A DNA stretch of 64,000 nucleotides from Vulcanimicrobiota bacterium (GCA_963714015.1 OY970223.1:384001-448000); one strand, 5' to 3'; numbered from the stretch's first letter, positions 4,884-33,999 are shown. Numbers and translations: made by a program. Notes: a model not told the origin generated them from the sequence alone.

Positions 4884-4897
4884 GAGGTTCAAAAACA

Positions 4898-5224: not shown

Positions 5225-5227
5225 TCC

Positions 5228-5548: not shown

Positions 5549-5560
5549 GCGAGGATTTCG

Positions 5561-10295: not shown

Positions 10296-10310
10296 TTGAG
10301 GACTACGATC

Positions 10311-11054: not shown

Positions 11055-11065
11055 GGAGTACGATC

Positions 11066-12392: not shown

Positions 12393-12958
12393 ATGCTCCA
12401 CAGATGCGCCGAATCGGCCGGAGCGGCGCGCTCGTTCTGGCGATTGCCGCGCTAGCCGACGGCATGATGGTTGGAGCGCATGCCCTGGGCCTGCGCCTCA
12501 ACACGACGCCGAGCATGCCGATGGGGATCTATCGCGTGCAGCCGGCTGGAGGCGCACAACTGCAACGGGGGACAATCGTTGCAATCTGTCCGTCCAGACG
12601 CGCACTGGCGGTCGCGATTCCGCGCCGCTACTTGATGCCGGGACACTGCGCCGGGAACGTCGAGCCTTTACTGAAACACGTCGCCGCCGTTGCCGGAGAT
12701 CGCGTAGAGGTGTCCGACGCCGGCGTCGTGGTTAACGGTACGCCGCTGCCGAACAGCGTTCGTCTGCAAAGCGACTGCGCGGGACGTTCGCTTCCGCGAA
12801 TTCCGTCCGGGCGCTACGTCATTCCCAACGGCGAGGTTTGGCTTTATGCGCCGGTGGCGCGCAGTTGGGATTCCCGCTATTTCGGTCCCACGCCGGCCGC
12901 GAACGTCGTCGGCATAGCGACGTCTATTCTAACGATAAGCCGGACAGCAACTTGCTAA
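12389..12958 (+). CDS. traF: conjugative transfer signal peptidase TraF (S26 family, pilin maturation)
   Basis: RLNTTPSMPMGIY (catalytic Ser), LLKHVAAVAGDRV (Lys), SWDSRYFGP. Start is TTG 12389 or ATG 12404. Confidence 0.88.
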   Translation: MNAPQMRRIGRSGALVLAIAALADGMMVGAHALGLRLNTTPSMPMGIYRVQPAGGAQLQRGTIVAICPSRRALAVAIPRRYLMPGHCAGNVEPLLKHVAAVAGDRVEVSDAGVVVNGTPLPNSVRLQSDCAGRSLPRIPSGRYVIPNGEVWLYAPVARSWDSRYFGPTPAANVVGIATSILTISRTATC

Positions 12959-13004: not shown

Positions 13005-13384
13005 TACGGGGCTGTCTTTTCAATGACGAAGGCCGGTTCAATCAAGATCCTTTAGTCCTTCAAAAGCTCCGGCGATGCCCACTACCCGCTTGCAGGGCAA
13101 TCCGGCGGCGTCTACGGGCTGGGAGCGGTCTTCGCCGTTACATTGAACGGTGAGGAGCACGTCGTCATAGTTTTTCGGGAAAGAACGGCGACAGTGCGTC
13201 TTCATTCGATATCCCGATCATCGTGAAAGGCGTCTTATACGGCGTAACCTACGCCGGCGGTAAGTACGGAAAGGGTATGCTCTACAGCCTTACGACGAAC
13301 GGCGTAGAACATATCTTACATGCCTTCGGAAACGATTCCGATGGTGCGTATCCGGTCGGCTTGCGCAATGTTAATGGGCGCTAA
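13005..13384 (+). pseudogene. remnant of a Gloeo/Verruco (GloVer) tandem-repeat surface protein
   Basis: Manual translation: ...KGVLYGVTYAGGKYGKGMLYSLTTNGVEHILHAFGNDSDGAYP... preceded by broken copies (YGAVFSMTKAG, GLGAVFAVTLNGEEHVV) with stops and frameshifts. Confidence 0.6.
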
Positions 13385-15660
13385 GGCTCTCTTAGGCAGC
13401 CGCGGCATCCACGTCGGCCGCGCCGTTCAGCAATTCCGCGAGCTCGTTCAGAACTGCCTCGACGATCGGATGATCGGAGCCCAGTTCGTTTTCGTAAATC
13501 TCCAGGGCGCGGCGATGCAGGTTGGCGGCTTCGGCATGGCGGTTCGTATCCCGCAAGAGACTTCGCAAGCGCGTTGAGATTTGCTGCGACGTGCGGATCC
13601 CGTTCTTCTTTCGAGCGTTCCGCTATGGCCAAACCCAGCCGAAGAAGCTTTTCCGAGTCGAGGAATGCCGCGCGCTTAGCGAGGTAGTTGCCGCAAGCGT
13701 TTGCCAGTCGCGCGCCCGGCGCGAACCCGCTCCCGGCATCGAGTGAAGCGAGCGCCGCGCGTCCGTGCGGTAACAGCCGTTCACACAAACGCCAGGTCGC
13801 AAAGTCGACCGGCGGAAACGCAGATTCGACGGCGCCGACTGCGCTTTGAATCCACGGCTGCGGATCGCTGCCTGCAAACCTGCGAGCCGCCTGCTGAACG
13901 AGCGGATGCATCCGGTAGCTGCGCGTCTCCGGTGAAAAGACGAGCAGCGAAAAACGGTGGAGCGCGCCGAGCGCGTCATCGGTGTGGGCCGCGCTGGCGA
14001 TGCAGGATCGCAAATCCAGCGCCGGCGTTTGGGTTCCCAGGCCCGGCGCAAGACTGCCTGCATAAATTTCCGGCGGTTGCACGAAGAGTTCTTCGGCAAT
14101 CGCATCCGGCGCGAAAAACGACGAGAGTACCAGCAATGCCGCGGCGCCGGGAGCCTCTTCTTCGGCCCGCACGATCGCCTCGCAGAACGTGGCCAAAACG
14201 GCTTGCTGGTAGTCGGCTCCGCGCGGAGCGATTGCCAGATGATCGCCGATACGACCCAGGTACCGGCGGGCGGTCACGTTCGGCGTCGCGCGCAAGTATG
14301 CCGCGGCGTGCGCGACGGCAAGTGGAAAACATTCGAGCCGGCGAGCAATCTCTTCGGCTTCGGCCGCGCCGATGTCGGCGCGTCCAATCTCGCGACACAA
14401 ATAATTTACCGTCTCTTCGACACGCCACGTGTCCAACCAGATCGGACAGACGTCGCCGCTCCAGGCGGAGTATCGTGAGGTCACGATAACATGCGCGCCG
14501 GAAGCGGCCCATTCGCGCAGGAGCCTATCGTCGTGAACGTTATCGTAGATCAGCAGCGCCGGTTTGCCGAACGTATCTAATTCGTTTGCGATCACTTGTG
14601 CGGCAGCGGCTCGGCGATCGCCGGCTTTTTCCAGGTCCGGAACGATCTGCGAACCCAGGCGGACGAGTCCTTCGATGATGCCGGCTTCGTCCTCGGCATT
14701 AAGGGACCAAATAACGCTATAACGATCGCGATTGCGCCGCGCGTATTCACGAGCGATCGCGGATTTTCCGATTCCGCCTAGTCCGTGAACGACGGCAATC
14801 TTGCCTTGATTCCATAACGCATGTTCGATGGCGCTCAGTTCGTCCTCACGGCCGGTGAAACTCGGCGTGATGCGAACGGCGTCCGTTCCCACGATCGACT
14901 CCGGCCGCTGCCGGGGCGCGGCGCCCTGCAGTTCGTCCGCCGATGCGGCGCGGCGATATTCAGCGGTGGTTTCGGCCATGGGAGAAACGCCGAGCTCTTC
15001 TTCGAGGCGTTTTGCGAATTCCTGATACGTCGAGAGCGCGCCCGCCCGATCGCCGCTCGCGTGACGCAGCGCAATGAGCGCACGGATCCCGTCCTCGCGC
15101 CAGGGATCCACGGCGAGCAATTTTTTCGTGTACGCAATTGCTTCGCCGAAGTTACCGCGTTCGCGGTTTACGGAGACGAGGTTGAGCAGCAGCTCGATCT
15201 GACGCTCGCGGAAGCGATCGCGATGCTCCGAAAGCCACTCGTCCTCGAAGCCTTCAAGCAGTTCGCCCCGATACAAGGCAACCGCATCGGCAGCCGTCGA
15301 CGGTTCGGCGCTGCACTTGCGGAACGCCGTGAGGTCGCACCATGCCGGCGCGTTGGGGTTCCACCGAACGGTCCGTTTGTCCGAAAGTATCCAGGGCGCG
15401 TCCGCGGGCGCCGGGGGTAGCGCGTCGTTGACTAAGTAGTAGAGGTGGCGGCGCAAATCGGCGCGGGCGTCGCTCTCCGTGTGGTCGGGCCAGAGGGCGA
15501 AGGCGACCGCGTCGCGGGAGAGCGCCGTATCGGAATGGACGAGCAAGTAAGCCAGGAGGGACAAGGCGCGCTGCGGTGCCTTGAACTTCAAGGGCGCATT
15601 CCCGTCGCTCAGATGAGCCCGGCCAAAAAGATGGATCCGGACGTTTGGATAGTCGATCAA
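13381..15660 (-). CDS. AfsR/SARP-family regulator: wHTH-BTAD + NB-ARC ATPase + short TPR tail
   Basis: LLAYLL...LSRDAVAFALWPD, AVALYRGELLEGFEDEWL, LAVDPWRED, FTGREDEL, VHGLGGIGKS, LLIYDNV, FPLAVAHAAAYL; probable frameshift near the 3' end. Confidence 0.88.
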   Translation of the reverse strand: MIDYPNVRIHLFGRAHLSDGNAPLKFKAPQRALSLLAYLLVHSDTALSRDAVAFALWPDHTESDARADLRRHLYYLVNDALPPAPADAPWILSDKRTVRWNPNAPAWCDLTAFRKCSAEPSTAADAVALYRGELLEGFEDEWLSEHRDRFRERQIELLLNLVSVNRERGNFGEAIAYTKKLLAVDPWREDGIRALIALRHASGDRAGALSTYQEFAKRLEEELGVSPMAETTAEYRRAASADELQGAAPRQRPESIVGTDAVRITPSFTGREDELSAIEHALWNQGKIAVVHGLGGIGKSAIAREYARRNRDRYSVIWSLNAEDEAGIIEGLVRLGSQIVPDLEKAGDRRAAAAQVIANELDTFGKPALLIYDNVHDDRLLREWAASGAHVIVTSRYSAWSGDVCPIWLDTWRVEETVNYLCREIGRADIGAAEAEEIARRLECFPLAVAHAAAYLRATPNVTARRYLGRIGDHLAIAPRGADYQQAVLATFCEAIVRAEEEAPGAAALLVLSSFFAPDAIAEELFVQPPEIYAGSLAPGLGTQTPALDLRSCIASAAHTDDALGALHRFSLLVFSPETRSYRMHPLVQQAARRFAGSDPQPWIQSAVGAVESAFPPVDFATWRLCERLLPHGRAALASLDAGSGFAPGARLANACGNYLAKRAAFLDSEKLLRLGLAIAERSKEERDPHVAANLNALAKSLAGYEPPCRSRQPASPRPGDLRKRTGLRSSDRRGSSERARGIAERRGRRGCRGCLREP

Positions 15661-15766: not shown

Positions 15767-18599
15767 TCATCCGGCGCGCGCCTCGCGCCGAAGTCCGTGA
15801 AAGGCTTGCCATACCGTGGCAATCAGCCCGTCCTCGGCCGCCATGGGAATGCCGATGCGGTTGAAATGCATATGGAGCAAGCTGGCGCAAAGCTCGTCCG
15901 AATCGACGGCGAGGCGCCCCTCTCTTCTTTTCGCCATTCCGGAGGATCGGTCAGCATCCCGCGAATTCGCCGGACGCGAGGCCATTGAACGTTACGGGCC
16001 GCGCGCGCGATTTCCCGATTGCGCTCCATCCAACGATCGCCGTCAAAATGTTCGAACCATTGCTGGAGGAAAGCGCCGGCGAAAAGGAGCGACGCGGTGA
16101 CGCGCGACTCCCAAGTCAACGCGGGAGCGGAAGCGATAAACTCCAGCGCACGTCCGCTGTCGACGTGAAAGAGTTGCTCTGCGAGCGGCATCGCAGCCGC
16201 GCCGCCGTAGCGTTCCAGCTCCGGGATGTACGTATCCAACGCGTAGCGCGGTATCAGACCGCGACCGACCAAGGCCGTCAAAGCGCCGGCGAGCCCTGCC
16301 AGCAACGCTTTGCCATCGCCCGGCGTGTGGAATCGAATGCGCAGATGTGGTTGGGGGTCGGCATAGCGCAGAAAGAACCAACGGTCGATGGAGGCTCCGT
16401 TCAAAGACGCAAACAGCAGCGGAATCGATCGGATCAGCCCATCGATCTCCGATGCCGGGCAGTAAAGTTTCGCAAACGCCCACTCACTTCCCGGAGCAAA
16501 GGATTCCGCCGGGCCCGTTTCGGTGAACGCGGCGCTGCGGGCGGGGCGCGGCGCGGCCTGCGGCGCAATACCGGCGACGAACTCGTGCAAATAGCGCTCG
16601 CCGTCCTTAGCGAGCCAGAGGTGATCGAAGTCGGGAAACATCTCTTCCAACCGCAGCTTGGACCCGATTGGATAGCCGTCGTTGCCTGAACCCATTTGAT
16701 CGCGAATCAATTCAACCGATACGGGCGAGTCGAGATCCAAAAGCAGGCTCGAGATCCCGTTCCACGAGATAGACCCATCGCGGCACGTTCCAGCTTTCGC
16801 GCCAGTGCTGCAGGAACCGGTTCAAATCGTCTTTATGCGCGAACAGTTCTTCTCTCGTGAGCGTCCATACGGCCGGAGCGAGCACGAGCCTTTCATAGCG
16901 GACGCGCGGAGTGAACGGCATTTGAGCGGCGAAACCCCATGACCACAAGCGCGGAAGAACGTGATCTTGTTTTCCGATCATCGAAAGCAGCCGCATGTGG
17001 GGCGGCCCGAAGTAGGTCACCTGCAGCATGTAACTTTCTTTAATGAGCAGCCTGCGTTTGAGCGTGCGCGAATATGCGACGAATCGCGTACCTTCCAGGC
17101 CAATCAGAATATCGCGCGGCTCGATGCGGACGACACCGGCGGGCAATCGCTCGCGCCGGCCGGCCACGGCATAGCCGCTCGCAGGCACTTGCAGCAAACC
17201 GGCATAGTGCTGATCGTGCGGCGTGAATACGAGTTCGACCGGAAGCGGCGCATTGGGATCGGCGTCCGAGGACTCTTGAAGTGCGCCCGCGTCGATGTCG
17301 AGCGCTTCGGCAAACCGGTGGACCGTTTTATACGTGCCGTCCGTGGCCAGTCCGTGAACGGGACGAATCAGATAATTTCCCTCATCGAGATCCGCCCGAT
17401 CCTTCGCCGCGATTTGAAAACCGATCTCGCAGCCGTTCGTGCACGATGAACTCTCGGGCTGCAATCCGAGAGGCTGCAGATCTTGCCGCTTCAGCACGGC
17501 CTCTCGGCATCCGTCACGCAGTGCGCGGGCGATCAGGCGGGCTCGCAGATCGTCCTTTACTGCATCCGGCGCATCGGGCAGGTCCATCGGATCGTCCGGT
17601 GCTCCGATTCCGGAATCGGGGTCGACGAGTTCGAGCAGCGGTATGCGCCTGGAGTCGCCTTCGTAGCGCTCCATGAATTTGGACCGATATTTGGCGAGTA
17701 CCCGGGGACGCGCATTTGCAGTCATCAATGAAGCAAGAACGCTTGCGTCGGAGATCACTCGTTCCCCGAGCGCTCCTTCAAATGACTGAATCATGTTGAC
17801 TTGCGTGCCGGCCGGAACGCGGGCAGCGAAAATTTCAGTTGCGGCTTGCGGCGCTCGTTCGGGCGGTTCGCAGCCGGAAGGCCGCGTAAAAATCAGACAC
17901 CCGATATCGAGCAGCTTGTTTGTAGAGCTGTTCGGCGGCAGCCGGCGGCATTTGCAGCCTGTCGCACAAGGCGGTGCGCAGATCGCGCAGCGGCCGGTCG
18001 ATCGACGCGATCCGCAATATCTCCTCGAGCTGAGCCGACCAGCGAACGTTGAGCGGTTCGTAGTGCAGAATAACCGGATCGGCCGTATCCAAGCCTCGAC
18101 GCAGCCGCTCGGGGTGCCGTATGTGCAGCCGGTCGCCCCGCAAGACCAGCAAATCATTGGCGACGACCGGCAGATCTTCGCGTAACGTCCGATCGCTTTC
18201 ACTTGCCGCCAGTGCTGCATGCGTTTGGGCCGGATCGGTCGCCACGAATAGTTCGGGCGCCCGCGACGAAAGCTGCAACGTGGACGCGGGTCCTTGCTGC
18301 ACAACACCCGTGCCGGCAAACAGGCCGAACGGCGTGCTGCGGGTCGCCATCCGAAGCGCATAGGCGAGGGCCTTCAGCGGCGCGCGTTTCTTCTTTGCGG
18401 CGCCGCCGCGGCTCCACCTTTTGAGGCTTTCATGCAAGCTCGGCGACGCCAGAGCGATCGCCGCATCGAACAGTCCGGACTCGCGCAGCAGATCGCGCGT
18501 TGCCTCAAGCGGATCCGCCGCAGCGAAAATGTCGCGCGCAACGCGTGCCGGGAACATCGGAACCCGTCCGGTCAGCAGCACGATCCGGTTCTTGCGCAT
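15767..18599 (-). CDS. lanB: full-length LanB-type lantibiotic dehydratase (glutamylation + elimination domains), frameshifted
   Basis: AAIALASPSL, YALRMATRSTPFGLFAG, FTPRVRYERLVLAPAVW, VPRWVYLVERD..LDLDSP, WAFAKLY, WFFLRYADPQPHLRIRF, YIPELERYGG, AEQLFHVDS and SLLHMHFNRIG across four ORF pieces. Confidence 0.9.
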
Positions 18600-18926
18600 C
18601 TAAGGACCGACCACCGTCACGCTTCCGCGCATGTACGGATGCGGTTCACAGTAATAGTCGTACCGGCCGGCCTTGTGAAAGGTCGTCGTCCAGGACTTGT
18701 GCCAGTCGATCGGTCCCGAATCGATCGATTCCGCCGCTTGCGCGGTCACGGTGTGCGCTTGTTCGTCCTCGTTGACGAACGTCACCGAATCACCGACGTG
18801 AACGCGCAGGTTTTCGGGATGGTAACTATAGTCCGCGATGTGTACGACGTAATGGTGGTGGTTCGACGCACCCGGAGCGGCCGCTAGGAGCAGCACCGCG
18901 GCGATGGACGAAAGAAGTATTTTCAC
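18600..18926 (-). CDS. secreted cupredoxin (plastocyanin/amicyanin-like)
   Basis: Signal peptide; VHVGDSVTFVNED..AHTVT and YDYYCEPHPYMRG (type 1 Cu ligands H, C, H, M). Confidence 0.92.
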   Translation of the reverse strand: MKILLSSIAAVLLLAAAPGASNHHHYVVHIADYSYHPENLRVHVGDSVTFVNEDEQAHTVTAQAAESIDSGPIDWHKSWTTTFHKAGRYDYYCEPHPYMRGSVTVVGP

Positions 18927-18947
18927 GAACGATCCCTGCCTTTTCTT

Positions 18948-20645
18948 TTAAAGAGAGAACACGTAGAGTTTGCCGCCTCGAGGCACGTGCGCGGTCAATT
19001 GCGCAGCAGGCCCGCCGAAAGCCGCGAGTCCGCCGCCATATCCGCAGTAAACGGCCACGTACTGTTTACCGTCGACCATATACGTTACGGGCGGCGCAAC
19101 GATTCCCGATTGGAGCTGCTGATGCCAGAGCACCTTACCGGTCTTTGCATCGAAGGCGTAGAAACGGCCGCCCGCATTTCCGCTAAATACCAGGCCGCTC
19201 GCTGTGTCGAGCACGCCGCCGGTCCAAGGATAATCGCTGGGGTGCGTCCACACTTTTCGCCCGGTCAGCGTGTCGATGGCGCTCAATTCGCCGAAACCGT
19301 GCGCACCGGGTTCTGCAACGGTCAGGGACACTTCGCCGAAATAGCCGAACCGTTCGCGTAAATTCCCCGTTCCGGTTACTTGCGCGCACAGGTGCAATAT
19401 CGGAACGTACGCAAGTTTCGTCACCGGACTGTAGGCCATCGGATACCAGTTCTTGCCGCCGCCCGAACTAGGGCAGTCCAGCACCGTCTTGCCGACTTGC
19501 GGGTATTTTTGCGGATCCAGTATTGCCTTGCCTTGCGAGTCGTATCCGAGAATCGTGTTGTTCTTTACAAAGGGCCGAGCGTAAATGAGTTTGCCGCTTC
19601 GGCGATCGATGGCGAAGAAGTATCCGTTGCGATCCGCGTGCACGATTGCCGGAATACGGCGTCCGCCGCGCTGCAGTGTAACGAGCACCAGTTCGTTGAC
19701 GCCGTCGTAATCCCAAGAATCGTGCGGCGTATATTGGTAATACCACTTCATCGCACCGTCCGACGGGTCGAGTGCGAGCAGCGAATCCGTAAAGAGGTTC
19801 GCGCCGGGACGCTTTCCGCCGAACCACGGACCCGGATTTCCGGTTCCCCAAAACAACGTGTTGGTCTGCGGATCGTATGAACCGGTAACCCACGTGTCGC
19901 CGCCGCCGCGTTTGTACGCACCAGCGGGCCAAGTATTTCCTCCGGGTTCGCCGGGCGACGGAACGGTCCATCGCTTCCATAACCGCCGGCCCGTCTGCGC
20001 GTCGAATGCCGCTATGAACCCACGCGCGCCGAATTCGCCTCCGGCCACTCCGGTGATAACGCGTCCGCCTACGACGAGCGGCGCGCCGGTGATGGCGTGA
20101 TCTTTTCCGACCGCGACGACTTGACGGCTCCAGACGAGGCGACCGCTTTGCGCGTCGAGCGCGATCAAACGATCGTCGATCGTTCCGAGGAAAACATCGT
20201 TTCCATAGAGTGCTACACCGCGGTTGACGACGTCGCAGCAAACCGCGCGCAGCGCTTGCATGGAGATGTTCGGCACGTATTTCCAGAGTACGCGTCCGCC
20301 GGCTGCGTCCAGCGCGATCACGGTATCCATCGGCGTGGTGATGAACATCGTGCTCCCGTTGACCACAGGCGGAGATTCGTGCCCCTGCGGCAAGCCGGTT
20401 ACGTACGTGAATGCGACGTGAAGCGATCGAACGTTGGAGGGAGTGATCCGAGTGAACGGCGCGTACGCGCGGCTGTCGTAAGAACGGCGATACATCAGCC
20501 ATCCGTCGTCGCCGCCGGCCTCGAGAAGGCGAGCGTTGGTAACACTTGGATAGTCTTGATTCGCGCGGCCGTGGAGAGCCAACGGTCCCCAGAACAGTAA
20601 GACCAGAAAACCGCAGCAGAGCAGGAAGCGCCCTATCACTTTCAA
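18948..20645 (-). CDS. PQQ-dependent dehydrogenase, methanol/ethanol family
   Basis: Vicinal CC (AVCCDVVNRGVA), GGEFGARGF, WVTGSYDP..N.LFWGTGNPGPW, YQYTPHDSWDYDGVNE, ADRNGYFF, GGKNWYP, P.TYMVDGKQYVAV; no C-terminal heme domain. Confidence 0.95.
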   Translation of the reverse strand: MKVIGRFLLCCGFLVLLFWGPLALHGRANQDYPSVTNARLLEAGGDDGWLMYRRSYDSRAYAPFTRITPSNVRSLHVAFTYVTGLPQGHESPPVVNGSTMFITTPMDTVIALDAAGGRVLWKYVPNISMQALRAVCCDVVNRGVALYGNDVFLGTIDDRLIALDAQSGRLVWSRQVVAVGKDHAITGAPLVVGGRVITGVAGGEFGARGFIAAFDAQTGRRLWKRWTVPSPGEPGGNTWPAGAYKRGGGDTWVTGSYDPQTNTLFWGTGNPGPWFGGKRPGANLFTDSLLALDPSDGAMKWYYQYTPHDSWDYDGVNELVLVTLQRGGRRIPAIVHADRNGYFFAIDRRSGKLIYARPFVKNNTILGYDSQGKAILDPQKYPQVGKTVLDCPSSGGGKNWYPMAYSPVTKLAYVPILHLCAQVTGTGNLRERFGYFGEVSLTVAEPGAHGFGELSAIDTLTGRKVWTHPSDYPWTGGVLDTASGLVFSGNAGGRFYAFDAKTGKVLWHQQLQSGIVAPPVTYMVDGKQYVAVYCGYGGGLAAFGGPAAQLTAHVPRGGKLYVFSL

Positions 20646-22894
20646 CGCACCGTCCCCCGGCCGCTGCGAATTTCGTAACGGATCGACCACGTGCGCGCAA
20701 TCGGGACTCCGAGGAATTGAACGGATCCGCTCGTCGTGGGGGAAGCGGCAGCGAACGCCGGAGACGTAAACCTTCCGGCATCCTCGTTGAACAAGTTTTG
20801 CACCGAAAACACGATCGCTCCGTTATTGACGTTGAAACGAATGCCGGCCGAAGTACTACTGTACGCCGGCAAGTGCGCTGCGTTATTTGCGTCGACGAAA
20901 GCCGTTCCTACTCCAACGGTTACCGCCGGAGTGTGGTATGAGAATATCGCGCTCGCGCGATGCAGCGGCACGTTCCAGATTTGCGAGCCTGGGATCAGCG
21001 TTGAATTCTCGCCCGCAGGGAGCGCCGGCACGCCGGCAGCCGTCGCCGCATACGTCTCATAAGCCACGGCAAGATTGAAATTAGCGCCTAACGGCGAGTT
21101 GACGGAGGCGTACCATTCCTTGTCGACGCGCAGCGGCACGGTTACGTAGTGCATGAGATACAAATCGCTTGCGGTCAGCGGGCCACCGCCGCACAAGTAA
21201 GCGTATTGCTCGTTGAGTGCTTGCAAATAGCCGGACGGCAATGCGGCGCCCCCGGCCTGGGCGGCGACAACTAGCGCATCCTTCGTCGCGTCGTAAAATC
21301 CGCCGAGCGTGACGTTCGCCCTTCGCAGGCGTCGCGTTATCGCAGCCGTGACTCCCGCGCTGTGCGGGGGGTCGGGCGTGACCTGGCTCGGGCCGGAGGC
21401 GTAAGCGGCGTGCGAGCTGCAGTCGAAATCGGCAGCTCCGGGCACGGCAAGGCGGAGCGCCTGCGCGTAATACGTTTCGATGGTCTGTGTTTGCGCGGTA
21501 TATGCGTCCCACTTTAAGCGCGTAGCGTTACTCCAAGCCGAACCTTCGATGGATGCATTGACGTGCGCAGCCGCGAATGCTCCGGTTCTCGCGCCGAACT
21601 GACCGTCCCGGTGACCGACGACGAACGGCCGGTGCGATTGTAACTCATTGAGGCCGTCGTTCCGGAGCTTTTCGAGACCGTTTCAAACGGCTGTGCGTAC
21701 GCATCGGCTATCGTTTCGGTGTTGCTGAGCGAGAGCGTTGCGCTGTTTTGCCCGAAGCGCCGCGTAAAATTCAACATGTCGTAGCGTCCAGAGTATCCGA
21801 ACCCGGTGTAGTCGGAATCGGCGTTCCTTCCGCCAGCGCATCGATGTCGTCATCGTCCGCCGAACCGGCATACGCGACGTGCAGCGCAGTCCAATCGTCA
21901 CGTCCGCGCGTTTGCGCCGCGCGAATATAGCCGTCAAGCATTCGCGTCCGCTCGGTGTTGCCCGGGCCCGAACCTTCCGCAATCCCGCCGGGATCGACCA
22001 GCGAGAGTTGTGCGTTACGCCGGTCACTGCCCAGTGCCACTGCACTCACGCGAGCGCCGCCCAACCGGAATTCCACGTCCGCAGAGGCGGCCAGCTCGTG
22101 TTCGTTCGCCGAATGATCGTAGGCCGCTCCGCTTTGATCGAAAAACGTTTGGCCCGCAAGGGCGCCTTCGCCCAAGCGATCGGAGAGCACGAAGGCATAG
22201 TTCGGCCCCGTCAGCGTTCCTTTCAGCGCTTCATCGCCTTGCGATCCGCTCAGGATCGAGAGCTGCTGCTGCGGCGTGCCCGTCGGGCTTTGAAGATGAA
22301 GGTTCGGCGTAATCGAGCCGTCATCGGCTTGATCCGGAGTGAACGATTCGACGAGATCGCTTGGAACCGTAAAACGCGATTCCTGGCCTGTAGGGAGCGT
22401 GAGCGGCGTGCCGTTCAGTTCCAACGGTCCGGATCCGCCTTCGGATGCAGAGCGGTAATTCGGCACGAAATTCAGCGAATCGGTCACGCTGCCGCTGATG
22501 ATTGCGGCGACGCTCGCGGTGTTCGTCTGCAGCGCCCGAGCGGGAGCTTGGCGACGACCGAATCAATCGTTCGCAGCCCGAACGTCAAATCGAGCGTCGG
22601 ACTGTCGGCGACTTGTACCGGCGATGCGCCGTCTTTGCGCCGTGCAAAGATCGGAGTGCCTGCGACGGTTTCGACAGTCGCCCGCCCGTCGGATCCCGTG
22701 ACGCCGATATATCGCTCGGCGTCGCGGTCCTTCGCGTAAATCGACGCCGCGGAAACGGGGTGGCCCGTCGCGTCGCGCACGAAGACTTGCACCGTCATCA
22801 GTTGCGGACTTTGAACCTGGCCTGCCGATGCGGTCCCGGCAAGAGAAGCTGCGAGAGCAACGGCGCTCAGCACGTAACAAAGAAGCCTAGCCAT
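20642..22894 (-). CDS. TonB-dependent receptor-like outer-membrane protein, several frameshifts
   Basis: Signal peptide + VRDATGHPVSAASI (carboxypeptidase-regulatory-like N-domain), plug-like segment, beta-rich body, NVPLHRAS, FVDANNAAHLPAY, SVQNLFN near the C-terminus. Confidence 0.65.
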
Positions 22895-23631
22895 AGCAAG
22901 CGTTTTCGTTACGGCGATATCCCCAAATAGCCAGTGCACCGAAGAGCGTTGCGTAAATCGCCAACGTCACGAATGCCGTCACGGTCGAGGGGTCTCCGCC
23001 AACGGCCGACCACACCAGCTCGCCGTATTGACGGGTCGGGCTGAACGGTGAAATCGCAGCGACTACCGGCGGCAGAAACTGCGGCGGAAGCCACAGCCCG
23101 CCGATGAACGCAAGCGGCAAGTAGGTGAGATCGGTAATGGGCACCGACGTCTTCGGGCTGGTCCAGTAGCCGATTGAAAGGCCCATGACGCCGAAAACGC
23201 CTCCGCCAATCAGTAGTGCAACGGCAAACCGGAGCCAAGCGACGGCGGATAACGTAACGTGTCCGAGCAGAATCGCGCAAGCAATGACCAGCGCCGCCGT
23301 CGCGGTCGCGAAGATCAATGCGCAGACGAGGCGCGATGCGACACGCACGCCGGCGCCCAGCGGCAGCGTCCGAAGATATGAATCCAGACGGACGCGCGAT
23401 CGTGCGCGATTCCGACGCCGAATTGAAAGAGCGCAACGCCGATTACCGCGAACACAGCGTACGATGCCAGCGCGTAACGAGCAGATCCGCGTTCTTCGAG
23501 TACGCCAATCCGAAGAATACGTAAAGCATCGTCGGAAGGGCAAGCGACGGAACGGAGTACGCCGGCACCCGCAGCAGTTCCAAAGTAGAAAATCGTGTAT
23601 CGAGCCAAAAGTTTCTGAGCGTCTCACTCAT
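22887..23631 (-). CDS. ABC-2 type exporter permease, frameshifted
   Basis: LLRVPAYSVPSLALPTMLYVFFG, FQFGVGIA, YLRTLP, YLPLAFIGGLWLP..FLP.VVAAISPFSPT. Confidence 0.85.
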
Positions 23632-24478
23632 GATGCCCTCCAACCATTCTCAAGAAGACGTCCTCGAGCGAAGGCGCGGCGATTTCGAGATCGCGATAAG
23701 GGATATTTCTCTAGAACAATTCGCGCACGACCGCGTCGGGGTCGGAAGTAACGATGCTGTACCGGTTTCCGGCGATCGTCGCATTGGCGATTGGCGCCGG
23801 AACGGTATCGCTGGTGAAGGAAACTTTGCGAGCGCCGGACTGCGCGGATCGCGGCGATCGGCGCGTCGTCAAGACGCGTCCACAGGACATGACTATCGCG
23901 CGCGAAGCCAACGCTTCGGCTTCCTGCAGGTAATGCGTCGTGAGCAGAACGGTTGTTCGGCTTGCGACGATTCGGAAATCGCATGCCACACGCGCGCGTC
24001 TTCTACGTCGAACTGGTTGTGGGCCGTCCAAGACGACGAGCTGCGTTTCCGGTAATGCGAGCGCCGAACTGAGCGCCGCTGCTCGCGCCGCTTAGGCCGC
24101 AACTTGGCGGCGCGCGAGTTTCGAAAGACGAAACGCTCGAGCAGCGCGCCGAGCGGCACAGGATTCCGCGCAGCGTCCAAACGTAGCCGGCGACTCGCAG
24201 ACGTCATGGCGGCCGGCAGTCGTTGTTTTGCTGCGTAACCGATCAGACGCCGCGTGCGCATGGAAAGAGGCCGCTCTCCAAAGACGCGCACGTACCGCCG
24301 TCGAACGCCAGCTCCAGCACGCTGATCGTCGTTGTCTTACCGGCGCCGTTAGGTCCAGAAGCGCTACGCGTCTCCTGCTTTAATGTCGAACGAGACGTCC
24401 TTTACGGCGGCGGCTCCGCCGTAGGATTTGTGCAAATTGCGCACGGCGATGACTGTTTCAGTTTTGAGCGATATACAC
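23628..24478 (-). CDS. ABC exporter ATP-binding subunit, heavily frameshifted
   Basis: GPNGAGKTT readable near 24325-24357; TVLLTTHYLQEAEALASR; SLEDVFLR at the end. Confidence 0.8.
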
Positions 24479-24531
24479 GGGATAGGTCCCCTTTCAGATT
24501 TAGGCGCGCGCTTTGCGCAAGCACGATCTCG

Positions 24532-24998
24532 TTATAGGTGACGTGCGCGACGATCGCCGCGCCCACCGAACGGTGAGCAGCGCAGCAGACGAAGACTAAG
24601 CCGTCGCCGGATGGTGCGACGCGCGCGGATTGACGACGCGTGCATCACGCAAATCCGGCGGTCGTCAGCAGCAGGGCAGCTGCGGACATGGCCGCGCAGT
24701 TCACGCCAGCCTCTCCAGATGATCTCTTCGGACGCCGCAACGACCGCAAGCGCCGTTCCGGTCAAGGCAAACTTTCGAAGCGTTGCGGCGTCCGCAAAGT
24801 ATGGAGGCTTCGGAAGCCGCCGAACAACACGGCGTAGAGCGCCGCGCCCATCAGAGCGCCGAGCAACAGCAGCGGCAGATCCGAAGACATCCGTGCGGTT
24901 ACGCTTGCGTCGATCGCCAAAATTGCGGCGGCGACGATCGCCTGCAGCACGAATCCGGCAAGTACGACGTTGCTCGTTGCGGCAGCATTACCGAACAC
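24532..24998 (-). CDS. CPBP/CAAX (Abi) intramembrane protease, frameshifted
   Basis: Hydrophobic ORF pieces with AASEEIIWRG (EExxxR motif). Confidence 0.6.
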
Positions 24999-25803
24999 AT
25001 GCTACGCTGTAGATGATGCCTTCGTTGACGCGTCGTTGTTGAGCATCGCGTCGATGTCTTTTTCGTAAAAACGCCGAGCGGAAGCGCGCCAAGCCCAGCG
25101 ATATCGCAGTCAGCAGAGCGTTTTGCGCAACATGGCCGGCCTCGAGGATCGTAAACGGTACGCGCGCAGGCGGTATTTGAGCGGCAGCGCCAAAACGCCG
25201 CACTTATCAGCAGAGTGATGGACGAGGTGTCAACGGCCTCCGGATAGATGCACGCTTCGGCCAGCTTGCGTAGGCGATCTCGGAGATTCGCACGAGACGG
25301 TGATCGGGCGAATCGTAGAAGTAATGCCGCACGGCAGGCCGTCGACGCGATGCACCGCGACGTAGTTGTCCAGCGGGAACAGCCGCCGCCGGAAGGCGCC
25401 GTGCGGAGAAGCTGCTGGCCGCACCGTTCTTGAGTTTGACGCGCTTGGTCACGCCGTAGGCCGAGACAAGATCGTCGCAACTTGCACGAGCGTTATCGGC
25501 TTGGAGAGAATGATTGACTTGACCTGCGCCGCTGCAAGAGGTCGCCGAGCGTCGTGTCCCCGATTCGGGCGCCGGCAGATCCACGGAGGAAGATGCCGGA
25601 TTCGCTTCGAGGACCGCAGGGTGCTAATCAGCGCGTTCGGATTGGTCTGGATCAAGTATGCATTGGTTTGACGCAACGCGCGCGAACGGTAGAGGCTGGA
25701 GGCCTCGTGATAGCACTCGGCCGGATCGTCAAACAGTCTTCTGCGCGACGTCTTCACTGCCGTAAACCAGTTCGAGTGCGTTGATCGTTCTGTATTTCGT
25801 CAT
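24990..25803 (-). CDS. SagB/ThcOx-type azoline dehydrogenase (nitroreductase fold), heavily frameshifted
   Basis: DDPAECYHEASS, LRTAPSGG..FPLDNY, LEAGHVAQNALLTAISLGL; directly downstream of YcaO. Confidence 0.8.
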
Positions 25804-25815
25804 TTTCTCTGCCTA

Positions 25816-27155
25816 TTAAGGAAAGGGATGCGGAAAATGGTTGATCTCGTGGGGGTCGAGCCGCCGTCCCAGTAAACCTTCGGACACGCCGCCGGTGTAG
25901 ATGCGATCGATTCCAAGGAAACGGTGGGCGTGCTCGGAGTCTATCTGGCACAGCTCAGGACAGAACGCTCGCACAACGCGCAGACCGAGTTGCCGCAAGT
26001 CGGGGGCGGTGACGTCTACGGCGTAGACTTCCATTCCGCGCTGTCCCAAGCGGTTTACGATCGCGTCAATCTGCTCGCACACGGAGGGCCCGCTTACCGG
26101 CGGGACTTCCCTCACGTGCCGGCTCTGCGTCGCCGAGTCCATAAACGCCGACTCTTCGCCATGCGAGCCAAAAGCGTGCAGCGCCACATGGTCTTCGAAA
26201 TCGCGGACTTGCGAAAAATCGCCGTCGGGCTCGGTCCAATCAGGATTGAGAAAGCGCATTTGCCGCGCCCAGGCATATGTCTGGAATGCTTCGCGCACCG
26301 CTTTGCCGGCAGCGTCGATCATGGTTCGCGCGCTCGCGGCGCCGGTCGCGAGTTGCACATAGCCGGTTTCGTCGCGCACGAGCGCCATCGCACTGGGCAC
26401 GTCGCAGAAAGGCGACAAGTCTACGACGGTGTAGCGCAACCCCTTGACGTTATAGTACGTATCGTGATTGAGTTCCATCTCGGCAACTCCGGTACAATCG
26501 ACGATCGGCATCGAGAGCCGCGTGTACCACATCAGCAAAAACGCGTCGCGTTCGACCAGTTCGTATAAGCCCGACAGCAGCGCCTCTTCAAACGTGGGCG
26601 CGCAGGCAACGCCGGAACTCGTGCTGTAGACTACGCGCGGCTCTTCCGGCCGGCGATGTTCGGGCAGATAGCAAAACGCCGAAGGGATCCAAACGGCCTC
26701 ACCCGATCGCAGGTTGGTTCCACGCACCCAGTGCGCCGGCGTGTCGTCGTCGAAGGCGACGAACTTGTCGGTCGTTTCGTATTGCGCTTTCGAAAAGAAG
26801 TTCAAATGCGCGGTAGGCACATGCGGGCCTTCCAGCTCGCGCGCCGTCGAAAAGTGGAGTCTTCGAGCGGAACGTACGAGAGCGAGTACCGCTCTGCCGC
26901 CTCTCCAAGCGCAGCGGCCAACGCCCGGTCGCGGTGCGGATGAATTCCGCCGCTATACAGCGGAACCGAGGCGCCGATGGTCAACTGCGAATCCGCCGCC
27001 AAGCACGTGACGTGCCACATGCGCGGATCGCTGGGCTGGGCCATCATGTGAAAGCGCAGATGCGCGATGCCGGTATACGGCGAGAGCAATTTCTTGAGGA
27101 CCGGCAGCGATTGCTCGAGCGGGGTCACGCCGCTGGGCCGCTTCAACGTATCCAT
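25816..27155 (-). CDS. YcaO cyclodehydratase (azoline-forming type), one frameshift near 26830
   Basis: ALAAALGEAAERYS, STSSGVAC, LLSGLYELVERDAF, KAVREA, VDVTAPDL..LGL.VVR, C-terminal PHPFP (PxPxP motif). Confidence 0.95.
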
Positions 27156-27157
27156 GA

Positions 27158-28104
27158 TTAGCTCTCGTACCAGGGCGACGGGGCGGCAACGTTCACGCGG
27201 CCGGAACATTCTGGACAGCGCGGTACGCGTAAGACGTCGTGCGATGAGATCCCGCGATCGCCGAGCGGCGCAAGCGAAATCAGCGTTCCGACCAGCGCTG
27301 GATCGGATGCACCGATCCAGCGCAACGCGTACGTGACGGCGAGGCCGGCAGCCATCATATCAATGGGCATGCATTGCTCGAACGCCGCCTCGGCTTCGTC
27401 GAGCTCAGATACTCCGCGGGGTACTTCACATTGGAAGCGCGCCGCAGTTGAAAGCAGGCGTAACACGCGGTTTCGCCCGGAACGAACAGCGGCCCGATTG
27501 CGGAGAACCGTCCATCGTATGGAAGAATCTGCAGCCACGGCTGCTTTTTGAGGATCGCGGCCTTGTTGATTTCCCGCAGGCGGCTCAACTCGCCCGTCGC
27601 CGGAGCGACGATTGCGAGATCGACTTCCTCGTCGTCAAAACTGGAGAAACTCGAGGTTTGCGCGCCCTCTATTCCGGAGCACAAGAGTCCCCGGAGAACC
27701 TCGCTCGCAGCATTGCTGGACCCTATGACGGAGATGCGCGCGCTTGCGAGGCGATCGCGGACGATTTCGGTCGAGCTTGCACCCCCGATCGATGAGAAGA
27801 AGACGGAAGTGCGCGTCAGCTTATCCTTTTCTGCGGGAAGCGTTCCGTCCATGAGCAGATCGTAGCGTTCCAGCAAACCGATCGCGGCATTGACGACCTG
27901 CGCATCGCTTCCGGAAATCGAAGCGATGTCTTCGACGCTGTGCCGCCCGTCCAGCACGGGCAGCAACTTTGGAAGGATCGCGCCGGCAGCGCGGCCCTTG
28001 AGGCAGATGACCGAGTCGCCGTAGTGGAAGATTACTTGGTCGTCATGCTTGTAGACGCGATACCAGGGTTTGAAGGCTTTGGTTGGCGCAATAGGATCCG
28101 TCAC
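27158..28104 (-). CDS. TOMM leader-binding / E1(ThiF)-like cyclodehydratase partner with N-terminal RRE, frameshift near 27410
   Basis: LLPVLDGRHSVEDI (RRE wHTH), PWLQI, IGPLFVPGETACYACFQLRR, VLRVPRCPECS; GAGGAG RBS before GTG 28104. Confidence 0.88.
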
Positions 28105-28152
28105 GTTATAACTCCTCGGTGAAACGGGGTATAAGAGAGCTGACACCCGGGC

Positions 28153-28426: not shown

Positions 28427-29075
28427 TTATTGCGACAATTCCCACTGGTAGTTGATGGGAATGTCGGTGTACGTGTGCACGATTTCATGCACGTCGAAAT
28501 GCGTAGCGCTAAAAGCGCCGTTGAGAAAAGCGAGTCGTCCGTTGACCTTGACGTCTTCGCCCACGGTGAATCCATGCGCGATCACGATGTTAGAGTACGT
28601 TCCCGATACCGTCAGGCTGGCGCGATCGCCGGCATTCTGCGAGACGACTTTGACCGGCACGTTTTTCCACTCGGTTTGCGAAACTTTGACCGGCACGACT
28701 GCGCTCCAGACGGCATGCGCAGGCTCTAAGGTTGGCGATATTCGTTCGCAGCACGAGCGGGATCGTGTTGTAAATCGTTACGATGTCGGACGGCGTTCCG
28801 GGCGATACGATCTCGCCGTCGGCGCTTACGGAAGCGTCGAGCGTATTGGTGGTTCCGTCCGTTCGGCGATAGGAAACCACTGCGCGATTCGAACCGGACT
28901 CGGCGACATGCAGAGGACTGGAGAGTGTCGTCGCTCCTCCGTCGGGCGAAACGTGCCCGACATAGTGGAAGTTCAGTGCGACCGAGTCGCCGGCGGCGTC
29001 TACGGGCGGACGCAGCGCTTGCGGCGCGGCGGTTCCGAGAAGAGCCGCGGCCAAAAGTACGGGAGAGATTCTCAT
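28427..29075 (-). CDS. secreted hypothetical protein (paralog 3 of triad), frameshift near 28720
   Basis: MRISPVLLAAALLG signal peptide; joins the end of ORF 28590-30053 with ORF 28427-28696. Confidence 0.6.
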
Positions 29076-29082
29076 GATGACG

Positions 29083-29771
29083 CTACTCCTGTTCCGGCGC
29101 GGTGCGCGCCATATGCCACTCCAGCGCATCGTTTGCGTCTGAGGTCCGGCGTTAACGAGTTCACTGGCGGCAAAATCGCAGCGATCGAATCCGGCCGGCG
29201 CGACGCGCAGCGCGAATTGGGCGGTGACGTCGATTGGAACGGTATATCCGGCGTAGGACGCAGTAAGCGTCTGCGAACCGGTCCCCTGAATGACCGCTCC
29301 GCCCGACCCGGCCGAGACGATCTTCAGTTGCACGGGCAGATAGCCAATCTGCCCGGAGTCACCGGTCTCGATCGGAACCTGTCCGTTCCACGTCGCACCC
29401 GGCTGCAGCAAAGGAGGCGCGCTCGCAAGCAGACCCGCAACCGTGTTGAATGAATCGATGCGGTTGCCGGCATCGCCCGAATCGATCGTCCCGTCGGCGG
29501 CGAGTTTGCCTGCCGCACTGGCGTTGTCGGTCGACGATTTTCCGGCCGTGACGATCCGAACCGAGCGCGCGTTTCCCACAGTAATCGTCGCGGTGCGATC
29601 GAAGACTACGCGCTGACCGTTCCAAAACGATCCGTCAAACTGCAGGTCGTACGAAATCGAGACTCCCGGCGAAGACGGTAAAAGTATGTGTGGGGCGCCG
29701 GCGACCGAACCTGCCGCGGTTGCGAGCAACCCGGCGAGCGTTGCGCTCGCGCCTCGCGTGAGGGCGTTCAT
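29083..29771 (-). CDS. secreted hypothetical protein (paralog 2 of triad)
   Basis: MNALTRGASATLAGLLATAAG signal peptide; ATG overlaps the upstream stop; 3' end approximate. Confidence 0.6.
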
Positions 29772-30511
29772 GAGTTCTTTCCTTTCAGATTGACTGTCCA
29801 GTGATACACGCCGCCGCCCGCCGGTACGTTGCGGCGCCCGTAGGTCTCGCGAGCGTACAAAGCCGCGTTCGTCAGCGTGCCGGCACGAAAAACCGCATTG
29901 ACGGAGACGGCGATGTCCGCAGTCAACGGGCTTCCGGCCGCCCCCGCTTGCAATCGGCGTTCGCCTTGTGCCGTAAGCGTTTGAACGTTGCCGTCCTCGC
30001 GCACGGAAACTCTGACCGGAACTGGCGCCGTCAGCGTATTGGATATCCAGCACATGGTCGTTGCGCGCCAGGTCGAACCGGCGACCGTCGAATCCGAATG
30101 CCCGAGCAGCGAGAGCAGCTCGTTGTAATCGAAGACTTGATCCGCAACACCTGAGGCGGTGTCGGGAACGACGATTCCAGCCGAGCCGAAATGCGCTTTT
30201 ATTGCGTTCGAGGTGCGGCTTTCGCGCTTCACGCCCAGATGCAGAATCTCGTCCTGCGTTACGCGGTCGTTCCGCCCGCTGACGATTACGGCGCCCTGCG
30301 CAATCTGCTTGAGATCGAGCAGGCCGAGATAGCGCTCGGAGTAACCGCCATAATCGGCTGAAAAGTCGAACACGTACGAAGCCGACGTCCCAGTGCCGCT
30401 CGGTAGAATATGCAGGCCGCTCGTTGGGAGCGCGACGGAGCCGCCGAACGTCCAGGTGAGGACGGCGATGCCGGCGATCCGGCCGAGGCGGTGGGCGCGC
30501 GAGTTTTTCAC
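29768..30511 (-). CDS. secreted hypothetical protein (paralog 1 of triad)
   Basis: GTG 30511; hydrophobic N-terminus; beta-rich body. Confidence 0.6.
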   Translation of the reverse strand: MKNSRAHRLGRIAGIAVLTWTFGGSVALPTSGLHILPSGTGTSASYVFDFSADYGGYSERYLGLLDLKQIAQGAVIVSGRNDRVTQDEILHLGVKRESRTSNAIKAHFGSAGIVVPDTASGVADQVFDYNELLSLLGHSDSTVAGSTWRATTMCWISNTLTAPVPVRVSVREDGNVQTLTAQGERRLQAGAAGSPLTADIAVSVNAVFRAGTLTNAALYARETYGRRNVPAGGGVYHWTVNLKGKNS

Positions 30512-33400: not shown

Positions 33401-33528
33401 GTTAGGCGGCCCTGATAAGGCCTGCTGCACCACGGTCCTCCAAGCGCGGCGCCGGCTCCCGCCGGCGTCGAAACGCTGTAAATGGCACTTTGCCGTCAAG
33501 CGCATGCGACCCTTCGCCGGCACTGCAT

Positions 33529-33999
33529 CTAATCCAAAGCGAGTTCCATGAAGGTTGGGCAGCGATAATCGACTTCGCCGTACGGCTCGCATTCTCGAAA
33601 TCCCAGCGCTCGATACAGTTGGTATGCCGCCGTCAGCCTCGTCTTGTCGGTGTCCAGGACCAACCGACGAATCTTCGCGTTCCGCGAGAATTCGACTGCA
33701 CGGGACATGAGCTTGCGGGCCAATCCGGCGCCTCGGAACTCGGGACGAACGTAGAGTTTACGGATCACCGCGGTCGATGGATCGAGCCGCACCAGCGCGA
33801 CGCAGCCTGCGGCTTCGTCGTCGACTGTAGCGACCAGCGCCAGATTCTGGGGACCGTAGAACGCCGGCAGATCTTGCAACTCGTTTTCAAAGGTTCGATG
33901 GCGCAAGTCCGGGTCCAAGCTGTCCTCGTACTCCAACGCAAGGTTCCGAAAGTGCTCGAAACTGCGCTCGTCTTGGGCAGCGCACAAAAAATCGTTCAC
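33529..33999 (-). CDS. GNAT family N-acetyltransferase
   Basis: AGCVAL, IRKLYVRPEFRGAGLARKL, LVLDT, AYQLYRALGF. Confidence 0.9.
   Translation of the reverse strand: MNDFLCAAQDERSFEHFRNLALEYEDSLDPDLRHRTFENELQDLPAFYGPQNLALVATVDDEAAGCVALVRLDPSTAVIRKLYVRPEFRGAGLARKLMSRAVEFSRNAKIRRLVLDTDKTRLTAAYQLYRALGFRECEPYGEVDYRCPTFMELALD

Follow-up and report, generated by a model that had tools for sequence, protein, structure and literature searches.

The 64,000-nt stretch of Vulcanimicrobiota bacterium DNA analyzed here (the window; all positions count from its first letter) carries a locus for a peptide that is ribosomally made and modified after translation (RiPP). Within it lies a region (18600..22894) encoding a TonB-dependent-transporter-like receptor, a predicted lanthanide-type pyrroloquinoline quinone (PQQ) dehydrogenase, and a cupredoxin. 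The order on the minus strand is ATP-binding cassette (ABC)-2 permease, receptor, dehydrogenase, cupredoxin, and LanB:

22887..23799, minus strand: ABC-2 type permease, with two frame changes
20642..22894, minus strand: divergent TonB-dependent transporter (TBDT)-like outer-membrane protein, about 750 aa if read through, with a signal peptide, an N-domain resembling CarboxypepD_reg or the SusC N-terminal extension, a plug, and a barrel
18948..20690, minus strand: PQQ-dependent alcohol dehydrogenase, type I (no haem domain), TIGR03075 and PF01011, frame intact
18600..18926, minus strand: amicyanin-like type 1 copper protein (PF00127), 108 aa including its signal peptide
15767..18599, minus strand: LanB-type dehydratase, full-length (Lant_dehydr_N and Lant_dehydr_C), with frame changes near 17.9, 16.75, and 15.9 kb

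The permease stop codon lies at 22887-22889 and the receptor ATG at 22894 on the same strand. The receptor stop (TGA, 20644-20642) is overlapped by a TTG (20645-20643) that opens a good dehydrogenase signal peptide (MKVIGRF...); the longest dehydrogenase open reading frame (ORF) begins at a GTG (20690), 49 nt within the receptor, and we regard the TTG that overlaps the transporter stop as the likely true start. After the dehydrogenase stop (TAA, 18950-18948), a 21-nt gap leads to the cupredoxin GTG (18926), and the cupredoxin stop (TAG, 18602-18600) is immediately followed by the LanB ATG (18599). Locating these codons bore out two statements of the initial annotation of this DNA, that the receptor stop overlaps the dehydrogenase start and that the cupredoxin stop abuts LanB. 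A promoter and terminator scan of the locus returned no signal exceeding the shuffled expectation. Because codons overlap or abut and the terminator signal is not above chance, we infer that the genes of the locus are co-transcribed.

The 580-aa dehydrogenase scores 577.4 bits against TIGR03075 (cutoff 480.05) over profile positions 5-530 of 530 and contains the PQQ propeller domain PF01011. Among solved structures, PedH is the closest to it (6zcw; E 3.3e-117 across residues 73-580), followed by Methylacidiphilum XoxF and then by quinohaemoprotein alcohol dehydrogenases. In the alignment to PedH, the vicinal Cys-Cys (CCD), GGEFG, GNP, and WD-x-D are all conserved, and the WDYDGVNE pointed out in the initial annotation falls opposite WDFDGVNE of PedH, with the extra lanthanide-type Asp two residues past the catalytic Asp. 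In the part of the source available to us, this second Asp is described as essential for lanthanide coordination in XoxF1 and ExaF (bioRxiv 10.1101/2020.02.25.964783). The vicinal Cys pair is present in 32 of the 37 dehydrogenase rows compared, and WDYD in every compared dehydrogenase of this group; an outgroup row from Variovorax has Thr at the lanthanide-Asp position. Every sequence marker that could be tested supports a lanthanide-type PQQ alcohol dehydrogenase, in agreement with the type first proposed.

The likeness to the PedH/ExaF type (PedH of Pseudomonas putida, 6zcw/6zcv) extends to the metal and PQQ motifs, the extra Asp, the Cys-Cys, the lack of a haem domain, and the periplasmic signal peptide. 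PedH is part of a regulon for alcohol catabolism that includes pqq genes and a cytochrome c acceptor. In contrast, the window enzyme, known here by its sequence, sits between a TBDT and LanB with a cupredoxin after it, in a genome without pqqB, pqqC, or pqqE. The initial annotation had raised the question of pqq genes, and the answer was negative for these three in this genome (89.6% complete): TIGR02111 and TIGR02108 found no match and the pqqE model TIGR02109 found generic radical-SAM proteins only (best 69.6 bits; cutoff 381). In the positive control, pqqC scored above cutoff in 5/5 genomes. The dehydrogenase would thus need PQQ from outside. Across 401 sampled genomes (tallies that take in some flagged unpublished), close dehydrogenase homologues (E <= 1e-120) occur in 45 and pqqC in 134; pqqC is missing from 19 of the 44 other dehydrogenase-positive genomes, including two that recur below under our handles G330 and G290, and is present in a third, G376.

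The cupredoxin passes PF00127 (45.4 bits; cutoff 21.2) and reaches 56.3 bits against the amicyanin equivalog TIGR02657, under its cutoff of 110.2. Its best solved match is amicyanin 4p5r (E 4.9e-15), to which the four copper ligands His, Cys, His, and Met align (AHTV and CEPHPYM). By these comparisons the protein is amicyanin-like and not an amicyanin. Our own coding-frame scan called this short gene non-coding, a call that we discounted, as the Pfam and PDB matches and a third-position G+C (GC3) of 0.72 back the gene. The earlier suggestion that the cupredoxin could take electrons from the dehydrogenase is plausible, as its one-electron acceptor. Amicyanin itself takes electrons from a periplasmic quinoprotein encoded beside the amicyanin gene. 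The window cupredoxin resembles the amicyanin of the Paracoccus amicyanin/methylamine dehydrogenase pair, its best solved relatives, in its His/Cys/His/Met site; unlike in that pair, its partner is a PQQ and not a tryptophan tryptophylquinone enzyme, and related loci use cytochrome c. The genome holds two cupredoxin paralogues (43% and 47% identical) at 992.6 kb and 3148.5 kb. A second copper protein of the window (35089-36081, minus strand; 330 aa), with two plastocyanin/azurin-type domains, is encoded just upstream of the LuxR-type regulator of the cluster and is 28% identical to the small cupredoxin.

The receptor, read as one gene in the initial annotation, lies in four frame pieces separated by three frame changes (~22894-22560, 22583-21864, 21807-21697, and 21682-20645). 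The Pfam models Plug (PF07715) and TonB_dep_Rec found no match in these pieces or in the corresponding proteins of G376, G330, and G290. CarboxypepD_reg at the N-terminus is weak (21.2 bits; cutoff 32.3), TIGR01783 at the C-terminus reaches 16.6 bits, and a profile search of PDB sequences with the transporter family matches the SusC N-terminal domain only. The receptor and eight homologues have in common the C-terminal motif W-x-[LIV]-R-Y. The family is rare: a collection of 5.8 billion proteins contains 13 members, none with a Pfam domain.

We modeled the fold from an 18-sequence alignment using the intact G330 homologue (754 aa, 33-39% identical to the window pieces). The model (pLDDT 84.2) gave 307 PDB matches at E <= 0.001 in Foldseek, and the top 50 are all TBDTs; the receptor family thus has the TBDT fold, a 22-strand barrel with a plug at the N-terminus, as judged from this intact homologue and not from the window copy. 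PqqU (9c4o) ranks first (E 1.6e-23, TM 0.52) and YncD third, and BtuB, PfeA, and FoxA are also among the matches.

These ranks bear on the possibility that the transporter takes up exogenous PQQ as PqqU does, for a dehydrogenase in a genome unable to make the cofactor. The missing pqqB, pqqC, and pqqE, none of which was found in G330 or G290 either, would fit such a role, which we nevertheless consider very improbable. The leading matches span E 1e-23 to 1e-21 and the top 50, all TBDTs, extend to 1e-19 at TM 0.5-0.6, a ranking that does not discriminate among TBDTs, and we rejected reading a substrate from it. Moreover, G376 has pqqC yet keeps the same transporter, and the transporter family accompanies YcaO loci in genomes without a close dehydrogenase. 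PqqU (YncD) shares the overall fold with the window family at ~11% identity, and its match cannot be told apart from those of BtuB, PfeA, or FoxA; unlike PqqU, the window family has an extra SusC-like N-terminal domain and is tied to YcaO loci, not to quinoproteins.

A more recognizable transporter was seen at a class I lanthipeptide locus, L136 (G336:C2, 7101-17190), where LanC, LanB, a LanT-type ABC transporter, and a glycosyltransferase are followed by an 841-aa protein with recognizable CarboxypepD_reg and Plug domains, 23-24% identical to the window receptor.

The rest of the RiPP locus, with which related loci were compared, comprises the following features:

23651..24486, minus strand: ABC transporter ATPase, in three frames, with at least two frame changes
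24500..25800, minus strand: remnant of a ~590-aa membrane protein with a CAAX/Rce1-like domain, of which a match of 34 aa only survives (the homologue L131:17465-19240 has the Rce1-like domain)
25816..27140, minus strand: YcaO cyclodehydratase, with one frame change near 26865
27152..28146, minus strand: SagC/E1-like YcaO partner of the leader-binding type of thiazole/oxazole-modified microcins (TOMM), with one frame change near 27403
28436..30415, minus strand: secreted beta-barrel family (200-270 aa, without a Pfam domain), here as three tandem copies or fragments
30779..33592, minus strand: MalT/LuxR-type STAND regulator, intact; the regulator type is shared with the G376 and G330 clusters
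13381..15660, minus strand: BTAD/AAA (SARP-like) regulator, its tail out of frame

The first context comparisons suggested that the dehydrogenase had inserted here by chance. Among 40 relatives, the closest dehydrogenases are 48-54% identical and have no RiPP neighbors: that of G024 lies with an aldehyde dehydrogenase, DUF779, cytochrome c, and a two-component regulator, that of G019 beside cytochrome c and a molybdenum aldehyde oxidase, and that of G040 among glycosyltransferases. The best 80 dehydrogenase loci (one genome per species) are at most 53% identical and do not include the cluster-linked homologues. No cupredoxin, LanB, or receptor was found near the dehydrogenase in any of 85 loci (these 80 and five loci of the relatives). 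A LanB search of the 401 genomes of the phylum gave matches in 38, and 10 of the 12 LanB loci compared are unrelated and lanthipeptide-type, without YcaO, the dehydrogenase, or this transporter. The remaining two, in G376 and G330, are true homologous clusters with LanB, the LuxR-type regulator, SagC, and YcaO. The initial 20 kb around their LanB genes held no dehydrogenase, and a YcaO scan of metagenomes found four distant loci only (23-28% identical).

Wider receptor and family searches overturned the chance-insertion view. The C-terminal receptor piece, searched against the 401 genomes, had its best matches on the cluster contigs of G376 and G330, a few kb past YcaO, and the dehydrogenase was found farther out, beyond the YcaO side. 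In G376, G330, and G290 the order is SagC, YcaO, a ~590-aa CAAX-type protein, ABC ATPase, ABC-2 permease, a 754-771-aa transporter, a ~220-aa secreted protein, and a dehydrogenase 55-57% identical to that of the window. A family-wide search added G433, where a dehydrogenase at the contig start aligns with the window enzyme in one unbroken stretch at 69% identity and is directly followed by an intact LanB, with no cupredoxin. G227 and G354 carry the YcaO set and the transporter and no dehydrogenase within the 20 kb examined; G144 and G237 have a distant YcaO with the transporter, and G094 has the transporter and ABC genes only.

The transporter is thus present in 8/8 related loci where it would be visible (the G433 contig begins inside the dehydrogenase), and the dehydrogenase in 4/9 (G376, G330, G290, and G433), across two other genera and at 55-69% identity. 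The recurrence of the permease-TBDT-dehydrogenase order in three other genomes, and of dehydrogenase-LanB in a fourth, is more than chance. The initial annotation had placed the whole trio inside the RiPP locus; conservation supports a link to it for the receptor, in part for the dehydrogenase, and not for the cupredoxin (0/9). The locus type, found in a family of soil bacteria, is mobile and lineage-restricted, combining YcaO and SagC (with or without LanB), an ABC-2 exporter, a CAAX protein, a divergent TBDT, and a secreted barrel. In one sub-lineage, a lanthanide-type PQQ dehydrogenase, accompanied by a one-electron carrier, was gained and has been retained.

That carrier differs between loci. 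Cytochrome c accompanies the dehydrogenase in 2/9 related loci, as a separate downstream gene in G330 and as a fused domain in G290, and no recognizable gene follows the dehydrogenase in G376. The cupredoxin is lineage-specific, a local substitute for cytochrome c. The carrier has been swapped at least twice while the dehydrogenase stays, which argues that a working dehydrogenase is selected. The G290 enzyme itself (L158, G290:C140, 7065-9458, minus strand), with its C-terminal cytochrome c, is a quinohaemoprotein-like fusion within an otherwise haem-less clade.

A dehydrogenase tree of 37 rows, with eight of the 80 public loci as outgroups and G433 not included, contains a clade of five rows that comprises the four cluster-linked enzymes and a long-branch outsider, G040 (SH-aLRT 95). 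The transporter tree did not resolve a grouping of the dehydrogenase-bearing loci. Single capture followed by co-inheritance would also yield dehydrogenase monophyly, and the dehydrogenase could be a hitchhiker, an ordinary periplasmic alcohol-oxidation module for energy or detoxification that was acquired a single time on the margin of a mobile RiPP island and has been carried along since, unconnected biochemically to either the peptide or the transporter. Consistent with this, the dehydrogenase stands at the cluster end in G376, G330, and G290, with the unrelated DUF2071, MaoC, and DUF1697 beyond it; it is absent from five of the nine related loci, its nearest non-cluster relatives are canonical ethanol-oxidation enzymes, and in the window it and the cupredoxin are intact among broken neighbors. 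We nonetheless judge simple hitchhiking possible but rather unlikely. The linkage has been kept across proteins 35-69% identical, in three genera and with differing flanks, the window and G433 dehydrogenases lie inside the cluster between the transporter side and LanB, and start and stop codons overlap or abut.

The same data bear on a second role suggested early on, oxidation of the peptide itself, in which the dehydrogenase would act on the exported or re-imported peptide, either completing its tailoring by oxidizing an alcohol that is C-terminal or derived from Ser/Thr, or breaking it to free its cargo, a release of the kind proposed for MbnP/MbnH of methanobactin systems. Its position is identical in three loci, directly past the transporter and the ~220-aa protein, the cluster-linked enzymes form a separate clade, and the dehydrogenase comes with an electron outlet of its own. 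Against these points, the catalytic and cofactor motifs are all those of small-alcohol dehydrogenases, identity to the ethanol-operon enzymes (53-54%) is about that to the three complete cluster-linked loci (55-57%), the dehydrogenase is optional in the locus family, and our literature search found no PQQ enzyme in RiPP maturation. We consider peptide oxidation unlikely.

The secreted barrel family recurs with the transporter. One copy always stands ahead of SagC/YcaO, the usual precursor position, and in the relatives a second follows the transporter. Members lie at 28436-30415 (minus strand) in the window and at L130:14371-15168, L157:5198-5860, and L158:9206-9874 and 17837-18655. A model of the ~220-aa protein (pLDDT 88) matches lipid-binding or autotransporter-like barrels (Z 10-11) and LolA (Z 8.4), and the predicted fold is ambiguous between a soluble lipid- or ligand-carrier barrel and a small outer-membrane barrel. 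An Atlas search with the protein returned unnamed clusters only. In the available part of a recent preprint, lanthanide-type transporters are described as almost always standing beside a small secreted protein (bioRxiv 10.64898/2026.07.10.737718). The likeness to that system, so far as this part describes it, is a TBDT beside a small secreted domain-less protein near quinoprotein-related genes. Its partner is ~120 aa, however, and its TBDTs cluster with known lanthanide importers; also unlike that system, the secreted-protein copies of the window lie upstream of SagC, away from the transporter, and three relatives have TBDT, ~220-aa protein, and dehydrogenase in succession.

A further arrangement was seen at L164 (G237:C26, 8280-14969), where the same transporter family stands by two B12-binding radical SAM enzymes, a CAAX protease, and a distant YcaO. 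The pair of transporter and secreted protein therefore accompanies several kinds of RiPP locus in the family.

The frame breaks in nearly all the biosynthetic genes had gone unnoticed in the initial annotation. Mapping against intact homologues places three frame changes in LanB (four pieces), two in the ABC-2 permease, at least two in the ABC ATPase, and one each in SagC and YcaO, besides those of the receptor; the 2.8-kb LuxR-type regulator, the dehydrogenase, and the cupredoxin have none. Between 23368 and 25837 no frame codes consistently. The frame changes are not accounted for by homopolymers.

We estimated the background of such changes in two ways. From 20 pieces of the same-genus genome G001 we took 117 ORFs of at least 350 aa, of which 111 matched and 95 were kept after 16 were dropped by a filter on coverage (>=0.7) and identity (>=45%); these 95 conserved genes total 47,906 aa, and 19 of them contain frame changes, 21 altogether. 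Our own codon-usage Viterbi scan predicts 592 frame junctions genome-wide (0.196 per kb coding). Nine of them fall within the 15 kb of the cluster, where the average window of that size has 2.48, so that the cluster is ~3.6x denser; 13/713 such windows have at least nine, with a maximum of 18. Errors abound throughout the assembly, a single contig with a marker completeness of 89.6%; the cluster counts as a hot spot, though not as the hottest. Denser patches were seen on G000:C1 at ~1,555,000-1,585,000, 750,000-770,000, and 945,000-975,000, and could reflect decaying islands or poor assembly.

It is quite possible, though short of probable, that the locus is a decayed relic on an old conjugative island, with true pseudogenes for the RiPP, transporter, and ABC functions and with only the dehydrogenase and cupredoxin still working. 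This would account for at least 12 frame changes falling in LanB, the transporter, the ABC genes, SagC, and YcaO and none in the dehydrogenase, cupredoxin, or LuxR-type regulator, for the stretch without coding signal, and for a junction density equaled in few windows; in G433, G376, and G330 the homologues are unbroken. On the other side stand the error-rich assembly, with 19/95 conserved genes frameshifted relative to the same-genus genome, the number of junctions predicted genome-wide, a contig that is single but incomplete by markers, and the hot spots of up to 18 per window, which fit low-coverage or strain-mixture patches. Because indels pervade the assembly and the cluster is ~3.6x denser than average, error and decay are inseparable here, and frame breaks in this assembly are not readable as biology without resequencing. 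Apart from the dehydrogenase and cupredoxin, the system may be inactive in this genome.

Turning to function, we tentatively favor the view that the dehydrogenase and its carrier are an optional periplasmic redox module co-expressed with peptide export and re-import, the dehydrogenase being a client of the imported metal. The peptide would be made and exported and would re-enter through the TBDT, alone or metal-bound. As a co-expressed periplasmic client, the dehydrogenase would receive its lanthanide by this peptide/TBDT route, and the cupredoxin would take up the electrons from alcohol oxidation and deliver them to the respiratory chain, with PQQ supplied from outside. A more specific form seems doubtful to us: a ribosomal lanthanophore, that is, a YcaO/LanB peptide that leaves through the ABC-2 pump, binds a lanthanide or other scarce metal, is re-imported by the divergent TBDT with its barrel partner, and metallates the lanthanide-type PQQ dehydrogenase, whose electrons leave via cupredoxin or cytochrome c.

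Several observations weigh against metal supply by a peptide. No precursor peptide was found, as the small ORFs conserved across eight loci are all antisense shadows of large genes, and azoles and dehydro-amino acids, being soft or not chelating at all, are a poor match for hard Ln3+ and a better one for soft metals. The STAND/LuxR and SARP types to which the regulators belong are not metal-responsive, and the ABC-2 exporter and CAAX protein resemble bacteriocin immunity genes. The dehydrogenase is missing within the 20 kb examined in 5/9 related loci, and the transporter family occurs in G094, G144, and G237, none of which is among the 45 genomes with a close dehydrogenase, so its primary role would not be to serve that enzyme. 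A dehydrogenase without pqqC is common in the family and hence not special to the cluster. The nearest non-cluster enzymes (53-54%) belong to ethanol-oxidation operons with aldehyde dehydrogenase, DUF779, cytochrome c, and a two-component regulator, and the window enzyme may simply be an alcohol dehydrogenase. The frame changes, at least 12 in the transporter and biosynthetic genes and zero in the dehydrogenase or cupredoxin, also weigh against metal supply.

Known systems offer partial parallels to the metal-client view. Methanobactin operons encode a RiPP chalkophore with the MbnT transporter and the periplasmic redox pair MbnP/MbnH, which, beside MbnT, is proposed to break down methanobactin to release its cargo. 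Both systems combine a locus for a ribosomal peptide with a TonB-dependent importer of its own and with periplasmic redox proteins encoded next to it. Unlike methanobactin, the peptide here would be modified by YcaO, SagC-like, and LanB proteins, and the redox partner is a PQQ dehydrogenase; Pfam scans of the cluster ORFs of the window and its relatives found no MbnB/MbnC-type domains.

The nearest precedent comes from Acidobacteria, in which XoxF3 genes inside TBDT-bearing nonribosomal peptide synthetase/polyketide synthase (NRPS/PKS) clusters are read, in the part of the article available to us, as lanthanide metallophore systems (PMC10875860). The likeness, within that part, is a lanthanide-type quinoprotein in a biosynthetic cluster with a TBDT. 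In contrast to those clusters, the window locus is ribosomal (YcaO/SagC/LanB), belongs to another phylum, and has a transporter not recognized by Pfam and an ABC-2 exporter. The named lanthanide carriers, in the portions of the sources at hand, are of siderophore type: aerobactin-like (an NRPS cluster in Methylorubrum) and pyoverdine-type (Pseudomonas putida). In a full-text search of one library, no paper turned up on a YcaO or LanB cluster that includes a PQQ dehydrogenase.

Lanthanide-type quinoproteins are widespread, and to our knowledge it is not known how most bacteria get the metal. The locus, which is conserved and brings RiPP chemistry together with an exporter, an outer-membrane importer of its own, and a lanthanide-type enzyme, is a testable candidate for a different acquisition route and may link peptide production to metal supply. 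If the ribosomal lanthanophore were real, it would rank as the first pathway to acquire rare earths by means of a RiPP, and its carrier would be a conjugative island of an uncultured soil phylum; should acquisition fail as an explanation, the dehydrogenase would be the first candidate PQQ enzyme with a RiPP as its substrate. Two families without Pfam coverage, the ~760-aa transporter and the ~220-aa barrel, recur with RiPP loci in the phylum.

Adjoining the RiPP locus is a complete conjugative type IV secretion gene set (2080-12958, plus strand), with a coupling protein, a VirB11-like ATPase, VirB4/TrbE, TrbL/VirB6, VirB8, VirB9/CagX, and TrbI/VirB10. In its last ORF (11066-12958), TrbI and a TraF signal peptidase share a single frame. 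Because this set is adjacent, the locus was probably acquired and probably lies on an island or integrative conjugative element. Both same-genus genomes are without this LanB and without a close dehydrogenase. Farther along the window, between 40000 and 58000, G+C falls from ~0.61 to 0.51-0.58, which may mark a second foreign segment.

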